Shown piece by piece: positions 16,322 to 51,265 of a DNA stretch of 64,000 bases (the first letter of the stretch is position 1; each line of letters opens with the position of its first letter). Position numbers and translations under genes: made by a program. This DNA comes from a virus. The notes beneath the pieces are model-generated. The model was not told the DNA's origin. It saw only the letters and a list, made by a program, of their open reading frames with translations, and did not search any database. Location: the IMG/VR virus record IMGVR_UViG_3300035053_000291; one strand, given 5' to 3'.

Positions 16322-16370
16322 TCCTATGCCGGGGGTCGAACCCGGATCATGCTGCCAACTGGCCATAGGC
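16322..16370 (-). ncRNA. Anticodon-less tRNA-like element 1
   Basis: G-CCTATG...CATAGG-A acceptor-like stem, D-loop-like CAGTTGGC, T-arm CCGGG-TTCGACC-CCCGG; no anticodon arm. Confidence 0.65.
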
Positions 16371-16663: not shown

Positions 16664-16903
16664 ATGAATAATGCTATTGCGTCAACTGTCGGCGAGAAAA
16701 TGGCAGGGGACAACACGGAAAAGAAATGGGTTTCCATCTCATTGCATCGGGATCTTATCCATCAGATCGATTCATTTATCGATGATGATCGGTTCTACGG
16801 GTATACCAGCCGTACTGATTTCATCACCGAAGCGGTCAGACTGCGGTTAGAAGAATTGAAAAAACTGTATGATGATACCTTCCCCGAACGAAAAGAAGAC
16901 TAA
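16664..16903 (+). CDS. Ribbon-helix-helix (CopG-like) regulator
   Basis: WVSISLHRDLIHQID...YTSRTDFITEAVRLRL; divergent promoter. Confidence 0.85.
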   Translation: MNNAIASTVGEKMAGDNTEKKWVSISLHRDLIHQIDSFIDDDRFYGYTSRTDFITEAVRLRLEELKKLYDDTFPERKED

Positions 16904-18815: not shown

Positions 18816-19118
18816 TTACTGCACCCTTCTTTCGATTGTTCTTTGGATTTCCCATCTGATCTTCATGCACATCTCAAAGACGAGGGCTATTCCATCCAGA
18901 TACGTTCCATATCTTTCTTTTATTGATTGGAAACAGAAGAAAAGCGCCACCAGATTCAGGGAAAAAAGCGCTATGAATCCTTGAAAATGCTGCTGTTGCC
19001 ATTTGAATATGAATCCAAAGGCGATTCCTGTTATCTGAAATGCAAGAGAGATGGATAACCAGCCATATACTCGAAATTTTTCTGCATCCTTCTGTTCTTT
19101 GTTTCCTAAATATCTCAT
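18816..19118 (-). CDS. Small membrane protein (2 TM)
   Basis: Two hydrophobic segments, SD. Confidence 0.7.
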   Translation of the reverse strand: MRYLGNKEQKDAEKFRVYGWLSISLAFQITGIAFGFIFKWQQQHFQGFIALFSLNLVALFFCFQSIKERYGTYLDGIALVFEMCMKIRWEIQRTIERRVQ

Positions 19119-19130
19119 GTTTCTTCCTCT

Positions 19131-19253
19131 TTATTGATGATGTTTCTGCTCCAATACCCTGATATATGCCTCTTCGAGCATACTGCAAGGGACGATTTCT
19201 TCTGCTGCTGCCACTTCTGCCTCAATTTGTTCTATTTCCTTTTCTGTATACAT
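19131..19253 (-). CDS. Small acidic protein (40 aa, MYTEKEIEQIEAEV...)
   Basis: Manual translation, AGGAG SD. Confidence 0.6.
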   Translation of the reverse strand: MYTEKEIEQIEAEVAAAEEIVPCSMLEEAYIRVLEQKHHQ

Positions 19254-19369
19254 GTTGTTTTTCTCCTATATCAGCCAGACAACCGCTTCTCAGGCTGTCA
19301 GCTGTCTTGTTTTTTTCAAAAAATGTGGTCCTTTCCGGAATTGAACCGGTCTGGACCATGGTGAAAAGG

Positions 19370-20239
19370 TGTAACGAGGGGGAATGCTTGGGTGTCAAAC
19401 CTCACATCCCCCCTTATAATAGGGCGTCATCGGCCTATTTTCAAATGGTTCGCAACTATCCTGGATGCTGCCAGGCTCATTTTACCCATGAGGATTTTCA
19501 GGTACACTAAGAACCACATGAAAACAGTTTTAAAAACCGAGTCTCAAGGGAAATGATCACATATGTGAAGGGCTAAAAGTCCCCCTGCAAAGCAAGGATC
19601 AAACCCATTGGGCCTATCACATCTGCTATTCCCCCAGTGTGCTTTAGACACTGGTTCGATGAACCATCACATCAGCCGCTATCAAGCGAGCCTTTTACCT
19701 CTCTTGGGTGTGATGGAAGTAGGATACCATACACGTCATTGTGTATGCACTTCAAACCGTTGCACAGTGCATTTCTCAGCCACTTTATCATAGGAACTCC
19801 ATTATTCTCAACCAACCATCTGGATGATATGTAAATAATGGGCGTTGGGTTACCAAAAGTTGTGAGGCGAACCTCTCATACGAGAGGAATCTGTCAACAC
19901 TTGTCTCCTTTCGGAGAATCGATTTTAGTCTCCTGTTGTGTCCTTTGCTGTTCCCGTAACTGATATCATCAAGGCGCCTTACGCCCCTATTACCAGGTGT
20001 CATCAGTCCCTTTCAGACATCTTCCCAGGTTGCCTCTCCCATCGGGAAGGGAGAGAAGAATAAGGGGAGTCAACCACCCTATGAGATATTCTCTCAAGGG
20101 GCAGATGTCTTACCGTATGGGTGTTTCTCAGGACCTCCGGCTTCTTTTTACTTTCAACCAGTCTTAGGAAACGCACCCGAAACAAAGGATGTGTTTGCCT
20201 ACCTGTGGTATTTTTTACGCCCCGTCCACTTAGGGCGAG
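19370..20239 (-). ncRNA. Candidate large structured ncRNA (~870 nt)
   Basis: No credible ORF; at least 12 perfect stems, GNRA and UGAGAA loops on the minus strand; preceded by mini-tRNA element. Confidence 0.65.
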
Positions 20240-20283
20240 TCCCAAGCAGAGGAATCGAACCTCTGGGAAGGCCATTCTTGGGC
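20240..20283 (-). ncRNA. Anticodon-less tRNA-like element 2
   Basis: G-CCCAAG-AATGGCCTTCC-CAGAGG-TTCGATT-CCTCTG-CTTGGG-A; 6+6 bp coaxial stack. Confidence 0.7.
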
Positions 20284-20810
20284 AGTTGTTTTTTTTCTTT
20301 TTTTTTCACAGGTGTTTTATTGCGTTCTTTTCCTGTGAGTTTTTTCTTTGTGTGGGGATTTTTTTTGTTTATGAAAATGTTTTTTGATTTAATTTTTTCA
20401 TGTTTTTTGCTTTTTTTTTCTCCTTATGTATCTCCACCCTATCCGTCCCATTTTTCACGAAAAAAAAAAATATTTTGAAAAAGAAAAAAAATTGGAACAA
20501 AAAAATAAATTGGAAAAAAAATTCGCAACAAAAAAAGAAAAAAAAGAAAAAATAAAAAAAGCAACAAAAGGAAAACAGGTCATCTAGGCATCTTGAGGCA
20601 GGAGGAGGAGGGGAGGGGCGGAGTGTGGGTTGCGGGGCAAAAATTTATTTTTGGCAGGGGTTCAGGGTGCCATAATGGGTCTCAAAATGTCTCTCAAAAA
20701 AGGTCTCATTCTCGGTCCCGAAATCTCTCTCAAATCGGGAACCTGTTTCTCCCTTAGAATGGACAGCTGTCCCCTTAGAAGAAAAAAAATTTAAAAAAAA
20801 TTTTTTTAGA
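20284..20810. other. Poly(T)/poly(A) tract region with G-rich run and short TCTCAAA repeats; possible origin or control region
   Basis: T-tracts 20284-20420 mirror A-tracts 20460-20580; G-runs 20601-20637; GGACAGCTGTCC flanked by CCCTTAGAA direct repeats. Confidence 0.4.
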
Positions 20811-20931
20811 GGTTTTTCTCTTTAGGTAGGTATGCCAGGATATTTTCCCCTCCTGGCTGGGTTGGATGCATCCCTTCCAGGTTATTTCTTTATTTTATAG
20901 GGGAATATGGCAGAAAAAGGCTTGTTTTGAA

Positions 20932-21006
20932 TAGCGGGAGATGGACTCGAACCACCGATCTGGAGGATATGGGCCTTCCGGGATGACCAGGCTTCCCCAT
21001 CCCGCT
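20932..21006 (-). tRNA. tRNA-Met(CAT), archaeal initiator-type, altered anticodon arm
   Basis: 75-nt cloverleaf AGCGGGA/TCCCGCT, A1:U72, D-stem GGGA/TCCC, TTCGAGT T-loop; CCA not encoded. Confidence 0.9.
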
Positions 21007-21329
21007 AAAAGGAGTATGGTTGCAGGAAAAAAAGCATTCATTTAGGGGACAAAAGCCATACGAAAGATCCTGCAACCATGGTTTACCTATGGCAAGCAAT
21101 ATCACAAATTGAATCTAGAGGTAAAAAGGCTTGTTTCGGGAGGGAGAAAAAGGGAGAAAGAAATGCAAAAAAAGCCCTTCTTCTCCCCGGTGATATGTAT
21201 GAATGGCAGAGATGAGGGGCATTTGAACAAAAAATCTCTATGTATTGGCAGATACGAGGAATAAATAATGCACTCTGCCCCTCATTACAATTCTACAGGA
21301 GTATATTGGGAGGTAAAAAGGCTTGTGTT

Positions 21330-25738: not shown

Positions 25739-25984
25739 TCATTTTTTCTTTTTCTGGCACTCAGTGCAAATGAATCTTCCCGTGGTGGTGTCAAGTGTTC
25801 CCTCTTCCTTGTTCTCCAGACAACTGTCGCAGACATATCTGATCTTCTTTTTTTTGGTCACTTTGATGTGTTCTCCTCGTTCTTTCATGGTAGTTGTTTC
25901 AATCTTCTTTTTCTTTCCCAGGTCTTTGAACAGCGAAAACGCATCTTCAAAATCCGGGACGATAGCGGTTATCAGATAACTCAT
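25739..25984 (-). CDS. Zn-finger protein
   Basis: CDSC...CTEC. Confidence 0.7.
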   Translation of the reverse strand: MSYLITAIVPDFEDAFSLFKDLGKKKKIETTTMKERGEHIKVTKKKKIRYVCDSCLENKEEGTLDTTTGRFICTECQKKKK

Positions 25985-28200
25985 TTTGTTTCCTCCTTTG
26001 GTTTTTGAAAAAAGAATTGGTTTGCCTGTGATGGTGAAAAGGTGAGTTTCGGCGGCATCTCCGCTGAGGTGTTGTAGGTGTAGATCACCATCATATGTGG
26101 TATCTTGATGTTCACGAACAAGACCATGATGCGGGATTTCTTTCCTTCTTCGGAGAGTTTATTATGATAAGCGATCTCCGGGCCGATCTCCTCTTTCTTC
26201 AAGGTCTCACTCCGTGGACTGATGTAACACTTGACAGATAAGACTGTGTATGATTCATCCTCATGTTGTAGGACGAAATCTGGTTTTCCATGGGTATCTG
26301 AGTAATCAGAATGCTGGATGTATTCCACCTTTTCCAGCACATTAGGAATGATGTATCCTTCCTCAAGGATGTTCTCTATCCAATCTTCGAACAATCCACC
26401 CAGTACATAACTCATGGTCCCCCGGAATTGTTTCTTCCGATACTTGACCGCTTCAATGCTGGTGTATTCTATGGGGATGTTCAATTTATTACGCTGGTCC
26501 TCACTCTGTGATATCTCATAGATCTGCCTGTTGGTGTAGATATCATAGTTTCCAATGCCTTCTCCCATCATGTAGACCACTGCACGTTCCTGTTGTGAGG
26601 GGTCACTTTCCAAGATGGTGTTGATGAGTTCCTCTTCAGATATCTGGAATTCGATGATATTGTCTGATGTATGGGTTGCCTTCTCCACCAGTTCCTTATC
26701 CTGTTCCTTGGTAGTTATCTTCTTTGTCGCTGTTTTCCCGGATTTCTGTTCCTCTGGATGCATCTGATGCCACAGGTAGAGCAGATGGTCGTAGATCTTC
26801 CTGAAATTAGCTGGTTTTTCTATCAATTGCCGATGAGAGGAGATCTTTCTTCGGGCAAGGTCTTTGATGATGTTTCTTCCTTTGGCCATGTGTGGTGATA
26901 TCTGTTCATCTTCACAGATCTGGATAAGTCGTTGTGCGACCCGTTCGATATTATCCCGTTCATCCATGTTGCTATAATGATATTTGATGATACGGTCATC
27001 CAATGATTTTATTTTATTATTCAATATCTTCTTGAAGAATGAGCGGACATGTGGTTTCAACGGTTCGAAATCCCGTGGGTCCTGGTCCTTTGCCAGGACA
27101 TCTGTCAGGAAATTGATCAGTGACCGTCTCCGGTCTTCTTGCTTGGCGAATGGATCATACGGGGGCATCAGCAGGTCTTTGTTGCTGTAGATGAACTGTG
27201 CCCACTGGTCCAGTGTCTCCGTGTCTGCCTTTATCTTCTTCTGAAATCCTTTTCCGCCGATGACATGTTTGACCACGTTCTTTGGTGCTGGAGGAGCATA
27301 CAACCAACCGATCTCTTTGGTGTACATGTCCTTGACCACAGACCATGATTTCGCATCCATGTCCTTTCCCCGTCTCCACTTGGCTTCCTTTTCCCCCAGT
27401 TTCTTCAGCCAGTATGAAGTGATCCGTTTACGGATGGTCTGTTCCCGTTTCTCATCCATGGCGCTGAGTCCTTTGTATATCTCAAATAACTTGTTCTGAT
27501 GGAATGTCTGGTCAATGGTCGGTAACTGCGGACCCCAGACGATGAAGAGTAATGCAGAAACAGTTGCGATGTTCTCCGGTAAGAATTGTTTCAGTGCATC
27601 CGGGTCTTTATGATGCCTGTCGATGAGTTCGATGATCTTATCCGGTATTGGTTTTCCATAGGTCTTTTCCGCCCGATGAAGTAATACTCTCTTTCGGTAG
27701 ATGTGACGGATAGCATTGTATTTCTCAATGGCCTCCATCATGGCATCAGATGTTCCCCTTCGGGCATGTTGGCTGCCATCTTCATCTCCTCCGCCCATCG
27801 GATCGTCGATGCTCATGTAGATGACATCACATTCTGGATCAATCTCACTTAATACATTGGGAAAAAATGAGGCTTCCAAACACTGACACCTGTCGCCATA
27901 GAATTCCTTAAGATGATAGCCGATAGCACGGCTGAGTGTCGACTTTCCGGTAGAAGGCCCCCCGTAGATGTGGATGCTCATCAGTTCGATCTTTGCATCC
28001 GGTATCGGCATCTCGATGGTCTTGAAAAATTTCTCCGTGAGGTTCTTCTCATGTTTCTTCCACTGCGGCAGTCCTGCTTTCGTGGAACGGAACATATCCG
28101 AATTGTGCCTGATCCCTGTCTCTTTCGACGTCCCGATGTTACACGGGTCGATCAGGCTGGAAAGGTCACCGTCGCATCCAAGGGAGTTTTGACTTCCCAC
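25981..28200 (-). CDS. P-loop ATPase fused to C-terminal PD-(D/E)xK-like nuclease
   Basis: IHIYGGPSTGKST, YMSIDD; C-terminal GLFE..GKPDFVL..SVKC. Confidence 0.7.
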   Translation of the reverse strand: MGSQNSLGCDGDLSSLIDPCNIGTSKETGIRHNSDMFRSTKAGLPQWKKHEKNLTEKFFKTIEMPIPDAKIELMSIHIYGGPSTGKSTLSRAIGYHLKEFYGDRCQCLEASFFPNVLSEIDPECDVIYMSIDDPMGGGDEDGSQHARRGTSDAMMEAIEKYNAIRHIYRKRVLLHRAEKTYGKPIPDKIIELIDRHHKDPDALKQFLPENIATVSALLFIVWGPQLPTIDQTFHQNKLFEIYKGLSAMDEKREQTIRKRITSYWLKKLGEKEAKWRRGKDMDAKSWSVVKDMYTKEIGWLYAPPAPKNVVKHVIGGKGFQKKIKADTETLDQWAQFIYSNKDLLMPPYDPFAKQEDRRRSLINFLTDVLAKDQDPRDFEPLKPHVRSFFKKILNNKIKSLDDRIIKYHYSNMDERDNIERVAQRLIQICEDEQISPHMAKGRNIIKDLARRKISSHRQLIEKPANFRKIYDHLLYLWHQMHPEEQKSGKTATKKITTKEQDKELVEKATHTSDNIIEFQISEEELINTILESDPSQQERAVVYMMGEGIGNYDIYTNRQIYEISQSEDQRNKLNIPIEYTSIEAVKYRKKQFRGTMSYVLGGLFEDWIENILEEGYIIPNVLEKVEYIQHSDYSDTHGKPDFVLQHEDESYTVLSVKCYISPRSETLKKEEIGPEIAYHNKLSEEGKKSRIMVLFVNIKIPHMMVIYTYNTSAEMPPKLTFSPSQANQFFFQKPKEETK

Positions 28201-38051: not shown

Positions 38052-38381
38052 TTACTTTATTTCTCCTTTTTCTACTTCAAACCGTTTCATGTCGTTCTTT
38101 TCCGGGTCCGGGATCTTCAGGTCCTCTTTTCTGGTTATCCTGATGAGGTCTCCTGGTTCATGCAGTTCCATCCATTTGTTGAGATTGCTGCTCCCATTCA
38201 ACTTGATGATCTCTCCATCTAATCTCTCAATAACATAATAGAGACCGAAAAGTCCGTTGTTCTTTGCAGCCAATGTCCCTGCGATCGATTCTCCTACCTT
38301 AAGATCAATGAATGATTCATCTCTCTCCAATTCTTCCTTCTTCCAAACAATATTCTCTTCTTTCACTTTTGGTATCGGCAT
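38052..38381 (-). CDS. OB-fold ssDNA-binding protein candidate
   Basis: W...GESIAG...YVI...G...L...M...GDLIRI...MKRFEV pattern of viral SSBs. Confidence 0.55.
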   Translation of the reverse strand: MPIPKVKEENIVWKKEELERDESFIDLKVGESIAGTLAAKNNGLFGLYYVIERLDGEIIKLNGSSNLNKWMELHEPGDLIRITRKEDLKIPDPEKNDMKRFEVEKGEIK

Positions 38382-38393
38382 TCTTTTTTCCTC

Positions 38394-38576
38394 CTACAAT
38401 GTAGATTGTTTGTTCTTTTTCTTTTTCGTGATGATCACCGTATCTTTGTTTACGACAACTGTCACGTTGTCCTTGTCCTCAAAAGGGAATGCTGAATCTC
38501 TCCATACCTTTGCCTGAATGGATAACACTCCCTTACTGCCATAGATGTGGAAGGTGCCTTTTCCTTCACTGGTCAC
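38394..38576 (-). CDS. AbrB/SpoVT-like DNA-binding protein
   Basis: GSKGVLSIQAKVW...FEDKDNVTVVVNKDTVIITK. Confidence 0.6.
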   Translation of the reverse strand: MTSEGKGTFHIYGSKGVLSIQAKVWRDSAFPFEDKDNVTVVVNKDTVIITKKKKNKQSTL

Positions 38577-38652
38577 TTCAGCACCCTCCGATTGTCCGCA
38601 CTGCTTTAAACATCATAACTTCTACTGGGAAAAGACATATAAAGGCTTGTTA

Positions 38653-38691
38653 GAAAGGTTCTCGTTTTGAGACTCGTTTCGAGAACCTTTC
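38653..38691. promoter_or_regulatory. 12-bp inverted repeat upstream of promoter (operator or terminator)
   Basis: GAAAGGTTCTCG-N15-CGAGAACCTTTC. Confidence 0.45.
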
Positions 38692-38886
38692 AGTTTTAGC
38701 CAGGCTGAAAGAAAAGTTGCTGTTCTTGCTTCTTCTAAAAAAAGATGTTGGTTGTTCTTGCGCTGGGAATGTTTCAGTTTTGTTGCAGGCTATTTTTTGG
38801 ACAATGCCTCTAACAATCTCCAATTCCTCTTGAGAAACTTTGCGAGCGGTCGTCCCAAATCAAAAGATTTTTCTTTCATGATTATG

Positions 38887-39108
38887 CTATTTCAACAATT
38901 CTTCAAATTCAGTTATAATTCTATCTATTGGACTTACTAACCAAGTATCTCTCCAAAGTTCTGTTGCTTCTTTAATAAAATAATCAGGTATCTCTCTACC
39001 AAAATACACATTATTGCTAAAATCAGCATGTTTCATGGTAGCAGTATCTTTTACTTCATTAAGCATACTGACATATTCTTCCAATTTCTTTTTACCCACA
39101 TATGGCAT
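38887..39108 (-). CDS. Cassette ORF, 73 aa
   Basis: ORF track; stop TAG is part of the motif. Confidence 0.7.
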   Translation of the reverse strand: MPYVGKKKLEEYVSMLNEVKDTATMKHADFSNNVYFGREIPDYFIKEATELWRDTWLVSPIDRIITEFEELLK

Positions 39109-39111
39109 TTT

Positions 39112-39261
39112 TCATTCACCTCGGTAGTTTCCTTTTTTATCAACTGGTGCACCACACTTATCACAAAAAAGAAAATCATCTAAATCAAATGTAATCTCAA
39201 TTTTTCTTCTTTTAGAATAGCCTCTTTTCCTTGCTTCCTTCTCAAACTCATCATCATTCAT
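39112..39261 (-). CDS. Cassette ORF, 49 aa with CDKC
   Basis: Manual translation, GGTGA SD. Confidence 0.7.
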   Translation of the reverse strand: MNDDEFEKEARKRGYSKRRKIEITFDLDDFLFCDKCGAPVDKKGNYRGE

Positions 39262-39278
39262 AATCTTGTCACCTTATG

Positions 39279-39440
39279 CTATAACTTATCCAATAAATGT
39301 TGAAAATGATGATATAGAAAATTCAAAGACTCCATCTCGAACTTTAATTTATCAATTTCTTTCTGTTTTTCATCAATCAAATTTTTAATCTCAATTTGAC
39401 GTTGAATCATATCATCTTCATCATTCACAATCCATTGCAT
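39279..39440 (-). CDS. Cassette ORF, 53 aa coiled coil
   Basis: Manual translation. Confidence 0.7.
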   Translation of the reverse strand: MQWIVNDEDDMIQRQIEIKNLIDEKQKEIDKLKFEMESLNFLYHHFQHLLDKL

Positions 39441-39457
39441 AATCTTGTCACCTTATG

Positions 39458-39586
39458 CTAGATTGTGAATCTCTCGTAGTAATCCTCTGGTTTCAATGTA
39501 CCTGCCCTCTTGTATAATTCCCATGAGCGTCTTATTGCTTCCGGGTCATTGAATGCCTCTTCAATATTCACTCTTTTCTTCTTCAT
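39458..39586 (-). CDS. Cassette ORF, 42 aa
   Basis: Manual translation. Confidence 0.7.
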   Translation of the reverse strand: MKKKRVNIEEAFNDPEAIRRSWELYKRAGTLKPEDYYERFTI

Positions 39587-39598
39587 AATCTTGTCACC

Positions 39599-39799
39599 TT
39601 ATGCTAATTTTTCAACTACATTTTCTAATAACTTTTTCAATTCATCAAAAGACAAACGCACCATATCAACGCTATCCTCATTATCTGAATGATGCCTTTC
39701 CCAAATATCAACATATTTCTTATCTACAAAAACAGTAGCCATCTTAAAAGACTCTGATGACTTCCCAAGTTCAATTGTTTCCCTATTATTCTTATCCAT
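39599..39799 (-). CDS. Cassette ORF, 66 aa
   Basis: ORF track; start reassigned to the ATG after GGTGA. Confidence 0.7.
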   Translation of the reverse strand: MDKNNRETIELGKSSESFKMATVFVDKKYVDIWERHHSDNEDSVDMVRLSFDELKKLLENVVEKLA

Positions 39800-39824
39800 T
39801 ATATTCACCAATTATGCTATCTTA

Positions 39825-40040
39825 TCAACTTGCTCGTTTCATCTCAGTTGAAAAATGGTCACTATATTCAAAACATTTAATCAATAATGTATCTGGAAAA
39901 AATGCTACTGCTTTCTCGACATAATCATCAAAATCTTTGAATGATGACTTATCATCTGTTTTCCAAATACCATCTCTCAACTTTTTAGTAAAATCATCAG
40001 CATCAGTATTTTGACCTTTCAACCAATCTGTTTTTTTCAC
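39825..40040 (-). CDS. Cassette ORF, 71 aa
   Basis: ORF track, GGAGG SD, GTG start. Confidence 0.7.
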   Translation of the reverse strand: MKKTDWLKGQNTDADDFTKKLRDGIWKTDDKSSFKDFDDYVEKAVAFFPDTLLIKCFEYSDHFSTEMKRAS

Positions 40041-40061
40041 CTGAAATCCTCCATTTTTATG

Positions 40062-40214
40062 CTATAACTTATTCCTACAATCCTCACAAATTCTTCTAAA
40101 TGAACCATCTTCTTTTTGTTCATCTGCAAGAAATTGAGCAAAACAGATAGGATTATTACAGAGAAATATCGGATAGGTTTCGTATTTCTTTCCACAAATT
40201 TCACAAACACTCAT
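40062..40214 (-). CDS. Cassette ORF, 50 aa Zn finger (CEIC, C-x4-C, CEDC)
   Basis: Manual translation. Confidence 0.7.
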   Translation of the reverse strand: MSVCEICGKKYETYPIFLCNNPICFAQFLADEQKEDGSFRRICEDCRNKL

Positions 40215-40239
40215 TCAATCACCTTTTCAAATTATGCTA

Positions 40240-40311
40240 TTATTGAGTTCTTGATATTAAATATTCAATGAAACTCTTCCATTCTTCTTTTTCTTTTTTA
40301 GTAAATTCCAT
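40240..40311 (-). CDS. Cassette ORF, 23 aa
   Basis: Manual translation between two motifs. Confidence 0.5.
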   Translation of the reverse strand: MEFTKKEKEEWKSFIEYLISRTQ

Positions 40312-40325
40312 ATTTCATCACTATG

Positions 40326-40496
40326 CTAAGATTGTGTTTTTTCCTTTATGGGTTCATACCCAAAATTCATAGACTCCAAATCTTCTTCAATCCTTGAACA
40401 ATCATCAACAAAAGGCAACGCAAATTTTTTACAAAGTCTCAATCCACGAAGTAACTCTCTCTTCTCACTTGCTGTTCTAATTTCTAAATATGGCAT
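40326..40496 (-). CDS. Cassette ORF, 56 aa (MPYLEIR...)
   Basis: Manual translation; shares a 23-nt start context with the 39108 ORF. Confidence 0.7.
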   Translation of the reverse strand: MPYLEIRTASEKRELLRGLRLCKKFALPFVDDCSRIEEDLESMNFGYEPIKEKTQS

Positions 40497-40514
40497 TTTT
40501 CATTCACCTCTATG

Positions 40515-40670
40515 CTATCCAATAAACGGATTGTGTTCTCTTCCTTCTCTCTGTGACTGTTTGAAACTTCTACTATGACAATCGGCACAAAGACCAAGAT
40601 AGATCGGAACATTCTTCGCACCACATCCCTTGCACTTTCCAATTTTATAATCTACTTTATGTCTCATCAT
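40515..40670 (-). CDS. Cassette ORF, 51 aa Zn finger (CKGC, CADC)
   Basis: Manual translation. Confidence 0.7.
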   Translation of the reverse strand: MMRHKVDYKIGKCKGCGAKNVPIYLGLCADCHSRSFKQSQREGREHNPFIG

Positions 40671-40772
40671 TATCACTAGATTTTATGATATTACTGAACT
40701 CGTAGTCCAATAGAATCTTACCTGCTTTTTATTTGGTTGACACAAATCACAATTGCACATTTTTATCTGCCT

Positions 40773-50700: not shown

Positions 50701-50963
50701 ATTTTCGCCTCCTCTATATTCTCCACAATCTGGTACCTGTCCTGACTGATCTTCTTGAGGATTCCTTTTTGACTAAGGATTCTGGTTCCCTGCGCCAGTT
50801 TTCTGGGTGAGAGATCAAGGCCGTACATGCGGTTGAGTTTCTGGACGTCCCATTTCGACTTGAAGAATCTCAACCCTTTCTTCTCCTTGAGATATTGCAG
50901 GAGGAGTTCTGCTGTCTCTTGTTGGTTCACTATTCCACCCGGATCCCGCGTTTCTTCCCGCAA
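50697..50963 (-). CDS. wHTH-like hypothetical protein
   Basis: LSPRKLAQGTRILSQKGIL. Confidence 0.6.
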   Translation of the reverse strand: MREETRDPGGIVNQQETAELLLQYLKEKKGLRFFKSKWDVQKLNRMYGLDLSPRKLAQGTRILSQKGILKKISQDRYQIVENIEEAKI

Positions 50964-51265
50964 AAGGGGCAGACCATCTTCCGGCTCTTGTCACTACTTG
51001 CCACTACAAAAGACCTGCCGCATTCATCACAGGCAACAATACGGTTTCGTTCCGGTAATCTGAATGAATTCACTTTGATCAGATGTTTGTCCTGCAGGGT
51101 TTTCATGCCCTGTCCCTTAGCTACTTGTTCTGATTCTGCTAACAGTTCATCCAATACGGCTTCTATCGTGCTCTTTGCCTCCTCAACAAATGAAGGGCTT
51201 ACCTTCAACTCAGTATTCTTTCTGATAAAATTACCAATATTATAGACATTTGATACTTTGCTCAA
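50930..51265 (-). CDS. Histone-fold protein fused to a Zn ribbon
   Basis: IGNFIRK..KVSPSFVEE...AESEQVAKGQGMKTLQDKHL, then CDEC...CPFC. Confidence 0.75.
   Translation of the reverse strand: MSKVSNVYNIGNFIRKNTELKVSPSFVEEAKSTIEAVLDELLAESEQVAKGQGMKTLQDKHLIKVNSFRLPERNRIVACDECGRSFVVASSDKSRKMVCPFCGKKRGIRVE

Follow-up and report, generated by a model that had tools for sequence, protein, structure and literature searches.

tRNA-like Elements and Large RNAs of Mobile Elements

In the vertebrate MALAT1/mascRNA and MEN-beta RNAs and in the TMERs of MHV68, the end of a long non-coding or viral RNA is set by a tRNA-like element that lies within a longer transcript and attracts RNase P and/or tRNase Z. 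The phage P1/P7 C4 and P4 CI RNAs are mobile-element regulatory RNAs, which are matured by host RNase P from longer transcripts. The locus considered here is a gene-free region of 881 nt on the minus strand of an archaeal virus-like element, IMG/VR virus record IMGVR_UViG_3300035053_000291; it spans positions 19359-20239 of the 64,000-nt stretch of DNA that was analyzed (hereafter, the window), and all coordinates refer to that stretch. According to Maier et al. (2015; PMC4326828), a tRNA-like t-element located upstream of the 5S rRNA of Haloferax volcanii is cut by tRNase Z (Hoelzle et al., 2008, 2012), and an engineered “icrRNA” with a t-element on either side is released in vivo through cuts by RNase P and tRNase Z, the former enzyme forming the 3' end of the RNA that lies upstream and the latter the 5' end of the RNA that lies downstream. 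In addition, GOLLD and ROOL are ~600-900-nt non-coding RNAs of bacterial phages and prophages, often found beside tRNAs (Weinberg et al., 2017, PMC5737381; Kretsch et al., 2025, PMC12286853). In GOLLD, the 3' region is conserved and the 5' region varies, and one example, GOLLD env-38, lies downstream of a Met-tRNA (PMC12286853).

The region probably encodes a new structured non-coding RNA of 0.55-0.9 kb, which is carried by a rare family of archaeal virus-like elements and is bracketed by tRNA-like processing signals. We rate the RNA family as real and previously undescribed; its host elements belong to saline, anoxic habitats. Like the Haloferax t-elements, the locus would present a stable non-tRNA RNA of an archaeon bracketed by anticodon-less tRNA mimics, as a natural counterpart of the engineered cassette. 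It differs from them in its cargo, which is a 0.55-0.9 kb mobile-element RNA and not 5S rRNA or crRNA, in its 3' element, which is a bare acceptor/T minihelix, and in its cleavage, which is predicted. Its resemblance to GOLLD and ROOL is one of analogy only: a large RNA of a mobile element, tRNA or tRNA-like neighbors, and a 3' part that is conserved while the 5' part varies. Unlike them, the RNA of this locus has no match in Rfam, an archaeal host, tRNA mimics instead of tRNA islands as flanks, and a tiny family; moreover, GOLLD and ROOL form homo-oligomeric RNA-only nanocages with a pseudoknot-rich “ornate” architecture, whereas the present RNA is known from its sequence and predicted folds. 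The MALAT1/mascRNA, MEN-beta, and MHV68 TMER systems differ in being eukaryotic and nuclear, with one 3' tRNA-like element, and share no common descent with this locus. The P1/P7 C4 and P4 CI RNAs are ~80-nt antisense RNAs with known targets, whereas no target beyond chance was found in the window for the present RNA.

A Gene-Free Slot Conserved Among Related Elements

The genes of the window lie almost all on the minus strand. Read in that direction, a tRNA-Met gene is followed by an origin-like region, a mini-tRNA, the gene-free region, a T-loop minihelix, a tract of six U residues, a hairpin-bearing leader, and a gene encoding 40 amino acids (Table 1). The corresponding slots of relatives were reached via contigs around homologs of a 739-amino-acid protein, which is encoded 6 kb upstream of the RNA (25981-28200, minus strand) and has 25 homologs with 31-83% identity. 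Three of these contigs contain an open reading frame (ORF)-free slot: L026, from Mono Lake sediment (74% identity in the 739-amino-acid homolog; slot of 559 nt), L005, which is identical to L006 (51%; 807 nt), and L011 (48%; 614 nt). In all three, the order is the same: an origin-like region, a tRNA-like element or a hairpin of 11-12 bp, the ORF-free stretch, a T-loop minihelix, and a ribosome-binding site. A partial fourth relative, X17, is ~90% identical and was found in short contigs of a salt-lake run. Among the other contigs, L004 and L022 stop just before the RNA slot, L008, L009, L012, L015-L019, and L023-L025 stop too early, and L020 has another gene order.

Table 1. Features of the RNA region and of its flanks in the window, listed in the direction of the minus strand
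Feature	Coordinates (minus strand)	Description
tRNA-Met gene	21007-20931	
Origin-like region	20285-20760	12-nt iterons 20745-20654; C-rich box ~20625-20596; T-rich tract 20570-20455 (~115 nt); G-rich box ~20449-20428, partly complementary to the C-rich box; A-rich tract 20425-20285 (~140 nt) up to the mini-tRNA
5' mini-tRNA (t-element)	20282-20240	6-bp acceptor-like stem 20282-20277/20246-20241; AAUGGCC linker; 6-bp T-arm 20265-20260/20252-20247 with 7-nt loop UUCGAUU; discriminator A20240; no anticodon arm in the predicted fold
Gene-free region	20239-19359	881 nt
P1, 5'-terminal hairpin	20237-20218	CGCCC/GGGGCG stem
Tail of P1	20217-20204	conserved A/U-rich single strand, follows P1 and ends in AUACC
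Variable 5' domain	20203-19760	~440 nt in the window, ~140 nt in L026; holds five of the nine stems listed in the earlier note
Stems of the variable 5' domain	20015-22/20103-10; 20034-40/20049-55; 20119-27/20168-78; 19904-08/19913-17; 19872-77/19882-87	19904-08/19913-17 with GAAA loop
Conserved core	19759-19524	236 nt, 74% identical to L026 16570-16807
Core helices H1, H2, H3	19748-41/19734-26; 19716-09/19671-64; 19692-85/19680-74	
Core helices H4, H5, H7	19654-48/19640-34; 19626-17/19595-87; 19539-34/19530-25	
3' junction domain	19523-19415	long closing stem around hairpins including 19475-71/19464-60 (minimum free energy folds)
Pf, 3'-terminal hairpin	19414-19377	11-bp stem, conserved GA/AA internal loop, 3-bp tip, 6-nt loop
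3' T-loop minihelix	19358-19326	6 bp, 3x3 internal loop, 4 bp, loop UUCAAUU; folding z-score -3.15
U6 tract	19323-19318	after the minihelix; possible archaeal terminator or pause site
40-amino-acid gene		after the hairpin-bearing leader

An earlier note on this DNA, made from its sequence alone, had described the region as the only long gene-free stretch of the window. No credible ORF was found in 19359-20239, and its best-frame codon-usage score (-0.118) is the lowest in the window, compared with 0.14 for the whole window and 0.15-0.37 for the neighboring genes; however, 20283-20930 and ~38.4-40.75 kb also score as non-coding, and the region is thus not the sole ORF-poor stretch. The second of these other zones (38381-40753) is AT-rich, with a strong GC skew and a best-frame codon score of ~0, and had been read in the same note as a set of micro-protein cassettes.

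In other cassettes composed of a mini-tRNA, a hairpin, and a gene, an ORF stands where the present region sits, which could point to a decayed protein-coding gene, or to one read with an unusual code or by frameshifting. Such an origin is very improbable. All three sense frames are repeatedly closed in all four homologs, at non-homologous places, with the longest stop-free stretches of the sense strand reaching at most 78 amino acids in the window copy, 39 in L026, and 49 in L005. In the most conserved blocks, two frames contain stops and the third is bounded to ~12 codons (by reading), and conservation tracks helices, not codons. The expectation of the earlier note that homologs would share no protein-coding frame is borne out in all four RNA copies, and a 90-amino-acid ORF inside the RNA region matches itself only among 5.8 billion proteins. 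The G+C content of the four full copies is 44-47%, vs 36-42% for their loci.

Structure and Conservation of the RNA

Both ends of the RNA are conserved in the four full copies. The stem of the 3'-terminal hairpin, Pf, has a different sequence in every copy while its pairing is kept: in a four-sequence alignment (A8), 14 pairs are formed in 96% of cells, and 8 of the 14 show compensatory double changes, a count that none of 500 shuffles reaches and that compares with at most 2 in slid controls. At the 5' end, the block formed by P1 and its tail was aligned in all four loci by both nhmmer and BLAST, and a regular expression built on this block matches those four RNA loci only. In X17 and L026, C20237 is replaced by U, a change that preserves pairing, as G-U, in the minus strand but not in the plus strand.

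Between the ends, the core is conserved within the subfamily formed by the window and L026, which share two identical blocks, 19694-19653 (42 nt) and 19551-19524 (28 nt). The consensus structure of the two cores (RNAalifold) has 58 pairs, all of them formed in both sequences, and 10 carry double changes, concentrated in H4 and H5; shuffles gave 4.9 +/- 1.5 (0/500 reach 10) and slid controls at most 2. Identity over 90-nt windows was ranked along ~10 kb of aligned window/L026 sequence, the coding parts of which are 66-77% identical: the stretch 19750-19661 reaches 0.82, above the 95th percentile (0.811), as does the 5' module. The top-conserved 90-nt stretch in this comparison (89%) is the leader between the minihelix and the 40-amino-acid gene (19308-19220, minus strand), which contains a hairpin built on a GACAGCTG-type palindrome. 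Similarly, X17 differs from the window at 5 of 189 positions in 19563-19751 (97% identical) vs 28 of 253 in the adjacent gene and leader (89%). Compensatory changes, the lack of a conserved frame, and a strand-specific fold, observed in four sequences for the ends and in two for the core, are the properties of a structured non-coding RNA gene. Covariation among homologs, which had been proposed as a check, is seen in Pf (8/14), in the core (10/58), and in the 3' minihelix (4/9).

The remaining parts evolve differently. The variable 5' domain of the window has no counterpart in the L026 alignment, and the ~140 nt found there in L026 are unrelated. X17 keeps a window-like 5' domain, with 14% differences in 20016-20115 and a change at 20051 that converts a G-C pair into G-U on the minus strand; 20116-20179 is swapped for 69 unrelated letters. 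The 3' junction domain is a simple hairpin in L026, and a comparable closing stem and hairpin is found in L005 and L011 (two-sequence consensus; the match across subfamilies was made by eye).

The earlier note had read GNRA and other loops on the minus strand, and this strand is the better folder, singly and in consensus: the core consensus has an energy of -54.65 kcal/mol, vs -37.9 kcal/mol for the plus strand, where 42 pairs include 5 double changes. This bears on the possibility that the region acts as DNA, double- or single-stranded, in the form of a cis element of the adjacent origin-like region (a replication, packaging, or recombination site). It does adjoin iterons, inverted C/G boxes, and long T and A tracts, in an arrangement conserved in all relatives, and antisense folding z-scores are negative too. 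However, the changes that preserve pairing are exchanges between G-C and G-U, and pairs of this sort form in the minus-strand RNA only; the plus-strand consensus fold is also much weaker; moreover, the flanks are tRNA mimics, that is, RNA-processing signals, oriented like all genes, and the more distant element L013 keeps the origin-like region without the RNA stretch. A role at the level of DNA is therefore improbable.

The earlier note had also described the region as packed with nine perfect stems, including recurring loop motifs. Eight of the nine are perfect Watson-Crick helices, but 20119-27/20168-78 has a 2-nt bulge, and the density of stems proved to be a moderate excess: the region has 6 perfect local hairpins, dinucleotide shuffles have 2.0 +/- 1.4 and attain 6 in 2% of cases, and 6 of 72 tiles of 881 nt have a hairpin count at least as high. 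The window copy contains GGUUUGA three times and UGAGA six times, but L026 retains none of the GGUUUGA sites and few of the UGAGA sites, so that the T-loop-like GGUUUGA loops and the UGAGAA loops do not hold as conserved features of the RNA. Separately, a reading of the UGAUGA/CUGA motifs as K-turn or C/D-box elements was dropped by eye, as the bulge-GA geometry is absent at H2.

Folding energies are better than those of dinucleotide-shuffled controls, as the earlier note had anticipated, though not impressively so (z-scores of -3.4 to -4.4). For the minus strand of the 870 nt delimited in that note, the z-score was -4.4 (20 shuffles) and -3.4 on a re-run, compared with -2.3 for the plus strand. 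The four RNA copies have z-scores of -3.1 to -4.4; each copy has the most negative minimum free energy (MFE) of its own locus, and the MFE of the sense strand is below that of the antisense strand in 4/4 copies. Thermodynamics alone thus gives a moderate answer, and the case rests on comparison with relatives.

tRNA-like Flanks and Proposed Biogenesis

Both flanking elements have the shape of a t-element: an acceptor-like stem and a T-arm form one stack, the T-arm carries a 7-nt UUCRANN loop, a discriminator follows at the 3' side, and the folds show no anticodon arm. Neither ARAGORN nor the Rfam tRNA model calls them as tRNA; both report the tRNA-Met gene only. The mini-tRNA and the U-tract lie at the 5' and 3' ends where the earlier note had placed them, and the minihelix that stands between the RNA and the U-tract had been missed. 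The mini-tRNA has a counterpart in L026, where a G-C pair of the T-stem has become G-U, and is also present in L013; in L005 and L011 it is replaced by a hairpin of 11-12 bp, which is the length of a tRNA acceptor/T stack.

In the minihelix, four of nine pairs show double changes among 6 copies. A search with a covariance model (R2) yielded 7 strong copies (E <= 8.5e-07), each of them on the coding strand; the window has three, L026 has two, and L005 and L011 have one each. A change in X17 at 19328 keeps a G-U pair on the minus strand. The U6 tract is shared with L026; L005 and L011 lack it, and their minihelix is directly followed by a ribosome-binding site and ATG.

Further mini-tRNAs (16370-16322 and 22656-22601) and minihelices (17839-17801 and 18779-18741) are present in the window. 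These additional mimics precede ordinary genes, each being followed by a hairpin or a ribosome-binding site, and their stems covary between copies, which suggests a tRNA-style punctuation of the long leftward (minus-strand) transcript of the element. On the opposite strand, a small ribbon-helix-helix gene (16700-16903, plus strand; weak match to Pfam RHH_8) diverges from the TATA-rich intergenic region that precedes the mini-tRNA at 16370; it probably encodes a local regulator with divergent promoters.

In the biogenesis that we propose, leftward transcription would start probably from the A-rich flank of the origin-like region. The tRNA-processing enzymes of the host would then excise the RNA: tRNase Z would cut after discriminator A20240 of the 5' mini-tRNA and generate the 5' end of the RNA, and RNase P would cut before U19358 of the 3' minihelix, generating both the 3' end of the RNA and the 5' end of the mRNA of the next gene; these two cuts are predicted from the t-element shape and from the Haloferax precedent. 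The 881-nt RNA released in this manner would have its ends shielded from exonucleases by the terminal hairpins P1 and Pf, and its body would be made of the conserved core and 3' part, together with a fast-evolving and expandable 5' domain. That the RNA is transcribed, cut out by these two enzymes, and stable is what we infer. Among metatranscriptomes, one sediment run (X18) contains 16% of the sampled core words, which is a weak hint of its expression.

Extent of the Conservation

Several observations weigh against the preferred explanation of the region as a discrete, stable, structured RNA. Family-wide conservation is proven for no more than the 5'-terminal ~45 nt and the 3'-terminal ~75 nt: the interior could not be aligned between window/L026 and L005 or L011 (MAFFT alignments of all copies are unreliable there), and a covariance model of the core (R1) finds nothing in L005 or L011. 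The structure of the core was predicted from two sequences, and its pairs were counted on these two again; the known copies, four full and one partial, are too few for R-scape-grade statistics. The L013 clade, whose 739-amino-acid homolog has 35% identity, lacks the RNA, and its origin-like region, mini-tRNA, and hairpin run straight into a gene. With respect to folding, matched 870-nt pieces of the same strand have a mean z-score of -1.3 (sd 1.75), with 3/29 equally low; 200-nt windows within the region are unremarkable, and the z-score of the region is not exceptional beside neighboring coding sequence, being moderately better at most. Finally, the match in X18 could be DNA carry-over, and the RNA has 16 antisense matches in the window, a chance-level number given the 13 that are expected.

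These data are relevant to an explanation in which function resides in the end modules alone: the t-elements would mark the cleavage sites, P1 and Pf would protect the flanking transcripts, and the interior would be tolerated filler of a polycistronic transcript, with no role of its own. The interior does vary in sequence and length among subfamilies (559-881 nt), beyond the reach of model R1, and units of mini-tRNA plus hairpin, or of minihelix, also precede ordinary genes elsewhere in the window, the L013 arrangement being a further case; the folding z-score, moderately below the local background, fits this explanation as well. Yet the genomes are compact, with genes that abut or overlap, and four diverged elements nevertheless retain 0.55-0.9 kb at this place. 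The window and L026 copies share in their interior the two identical blocks (42 and 28 nt) and two helices that covary, at a distance at which coding DNA shows 66-77% identity; X17 is better conserved in the core than in the flanking gene and leader, and G+C is raised in 4/4 copies. We regard filler as unlikely, but because the sequences are few, it keeps a real, if minor, share of the probability.

Comparison With Known RNA Families

A structured RNA of this size in a mobile element could also be a divergent member of a described class, such as GOLLD, ROOL, OLE, HEARO, RNase P RNA, or an ORF-less group I/II intron. Size, mobile-element context, tRNA neighborhood, and the division into a conserved 3' part and a variable 5' part recall GOLLD and ROOL, and the earlier note had considered the region to be an archaeal member or analog of that class, or a new class. 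With cmscan, however, the whole window gave no RNA family at gathering thresholds, and 19100-21200 at E<=10 gave only the tRNA-Met and chance-level matches, with no RNase P RNA, signal recognition particle RNA, group I/II intron, or known ribozyme. No Rfam model matched L026, L005, L011, or L013, and none of the Rfam 15 models matched the window or the three homologous loci at E<=10 with relaxed filters. The cmscan check suggested in the earlier note thus left GOLLD, ROOL, OLE, RNase P, and group I/II introns all unmatched; a new class in an archaeal mobile element is retained and membership in GOLLD/ROOL is not, so that assignment to a described class is scarcely plausible. Taken jointly, a DNA-level element, a decayed gene, and a known family account for only a small share of the probability, and a new, structured non-coding RNA remains the preferred explanation.

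Searches for additional copies returned no homolog: the region was compared with phage and plasmid records by blastn, five patterns from the RNA or the minihelix were scanned for exact matches in IMG/VR, and exact-pattern scans also covered JGI metagenome contigs and GTDB genomes. A neighboring 300-amino-acid protein, searched as protein, retrieved itself only, and an IMG/VR search with this protein and with a 19-sequence alignment of the 739-amino-acid family found nothing.

The Origin-like Region and the Host Element

The origin-like region was delimited from three repeat families (D1-D3) and inverted repeats, plus reading of the sequence. The same order of elements precedes the slot in L026 (15860-16340), L005 (17400-17920), L011 (9500-10010), and L013 (14830-15375). 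In this conserved module, the T-rich tract between the C-rich and G-rich boxes measures 100-150 nt, and X17 lacks exactly one 12-nt iteron unit, at 20690. Such an arrangement suggests that 20285-20760 may function as an origin, with a promoter presumably located in the A-rich tract.

The tRNA-Met gene lies upstream of the origin-like region, ~650 nt upstream of the RNA, and is initiator-like (A1:U72). No tRNA gene was found in L026, L005, L011, or L008, the tRNA-Met being peculiar to the element of the window. Its 3' half has exact matches in two Bacteroidales metagenome-assembled genomes only, and is uninformative on the host.

The DNA of the window is present in a series of oil-field metagenomes. 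For the 739-amino-acid protein, the predicted fold is that of an STIV B204-like packaging ATPase with a C-terminal Hjc-like (PD-(D/E)xK) nuclease (Foldseek; weak E-values, probabilities of 0.9-1.0), and the PCNA of the element is closest to the clamps of Archaeoglobus and Haloferax. Because of this fold and this affinity, the context is taken to be an archaeal virus-like element. The 739-amino-acid protein marks a family of elements from oil-field, soda-lake, and salt-lake samples, and five of its homologs (P0003, P0010, P0011, P0022, and P0027) contain inteins. Nearly all tested proteins of the element family are without a recognizable family in Pfam or PHROGs.

Related elements also carry IS200/IS605-type insertions, with Y1 transposase and TnpB/Cas12f-like genes (L008, 3261-5281; L022, 9319-10362), one of them directly after the 739-amino-acid gene. 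In the window, the gene at 50930-51265 (minus strand), described in the earlier note as a histone fused to a Zn ribbon, has weak zinc-ribbon matches and no histone-fold match in Pfam.

Possible Function and Significance

No adjacent partner gene was found to be conserved together with the RNA. Our best guess is that the RNA serves as a protein-binding scaffold or decoy in replication or host takeover. Because the sister clade of L013 lives without it, such a function would be accessory and belong to one clade. A bolder proposal is a free-standing RNA machine, either a self-assembling RNA or ribonucleoprotein scaffold, which would make it the archaeal equivalent of GOLLD/ROOL, or an origin-linked decoy that would capture a nucleic-acid-binding protein of the host or of the virus; we consider this doubtful. 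If it were true, this would be the first large “ornate”-type RNA family of archaeal viruses, with natural paired t-elements that excise a long RNA.

To our knowledge, large structured RNAs without an assigned function have been described almost only from bacteria and their phages, and the t-element-bracketed layout has so far been known in archaea from a 5S rRNA leader and an engineered cassette. The locus provides a concrete candidate for a large structured RNA of archaeal mobile elements; because its predicted ends are defined, it could be synthesized in vitro straight away. In addition, the mimics that precede several genes and bracket a long RNA look like a natural “tRNA punctuation” of an archaeal element. 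If the proposed biogenesis is correct, the substrate range of archaeal RNase P and tRNase Z would be widened, and the RNA would offer a handle on a family of uncultivated elements whose tested proteins mostly lack a recognizable family.

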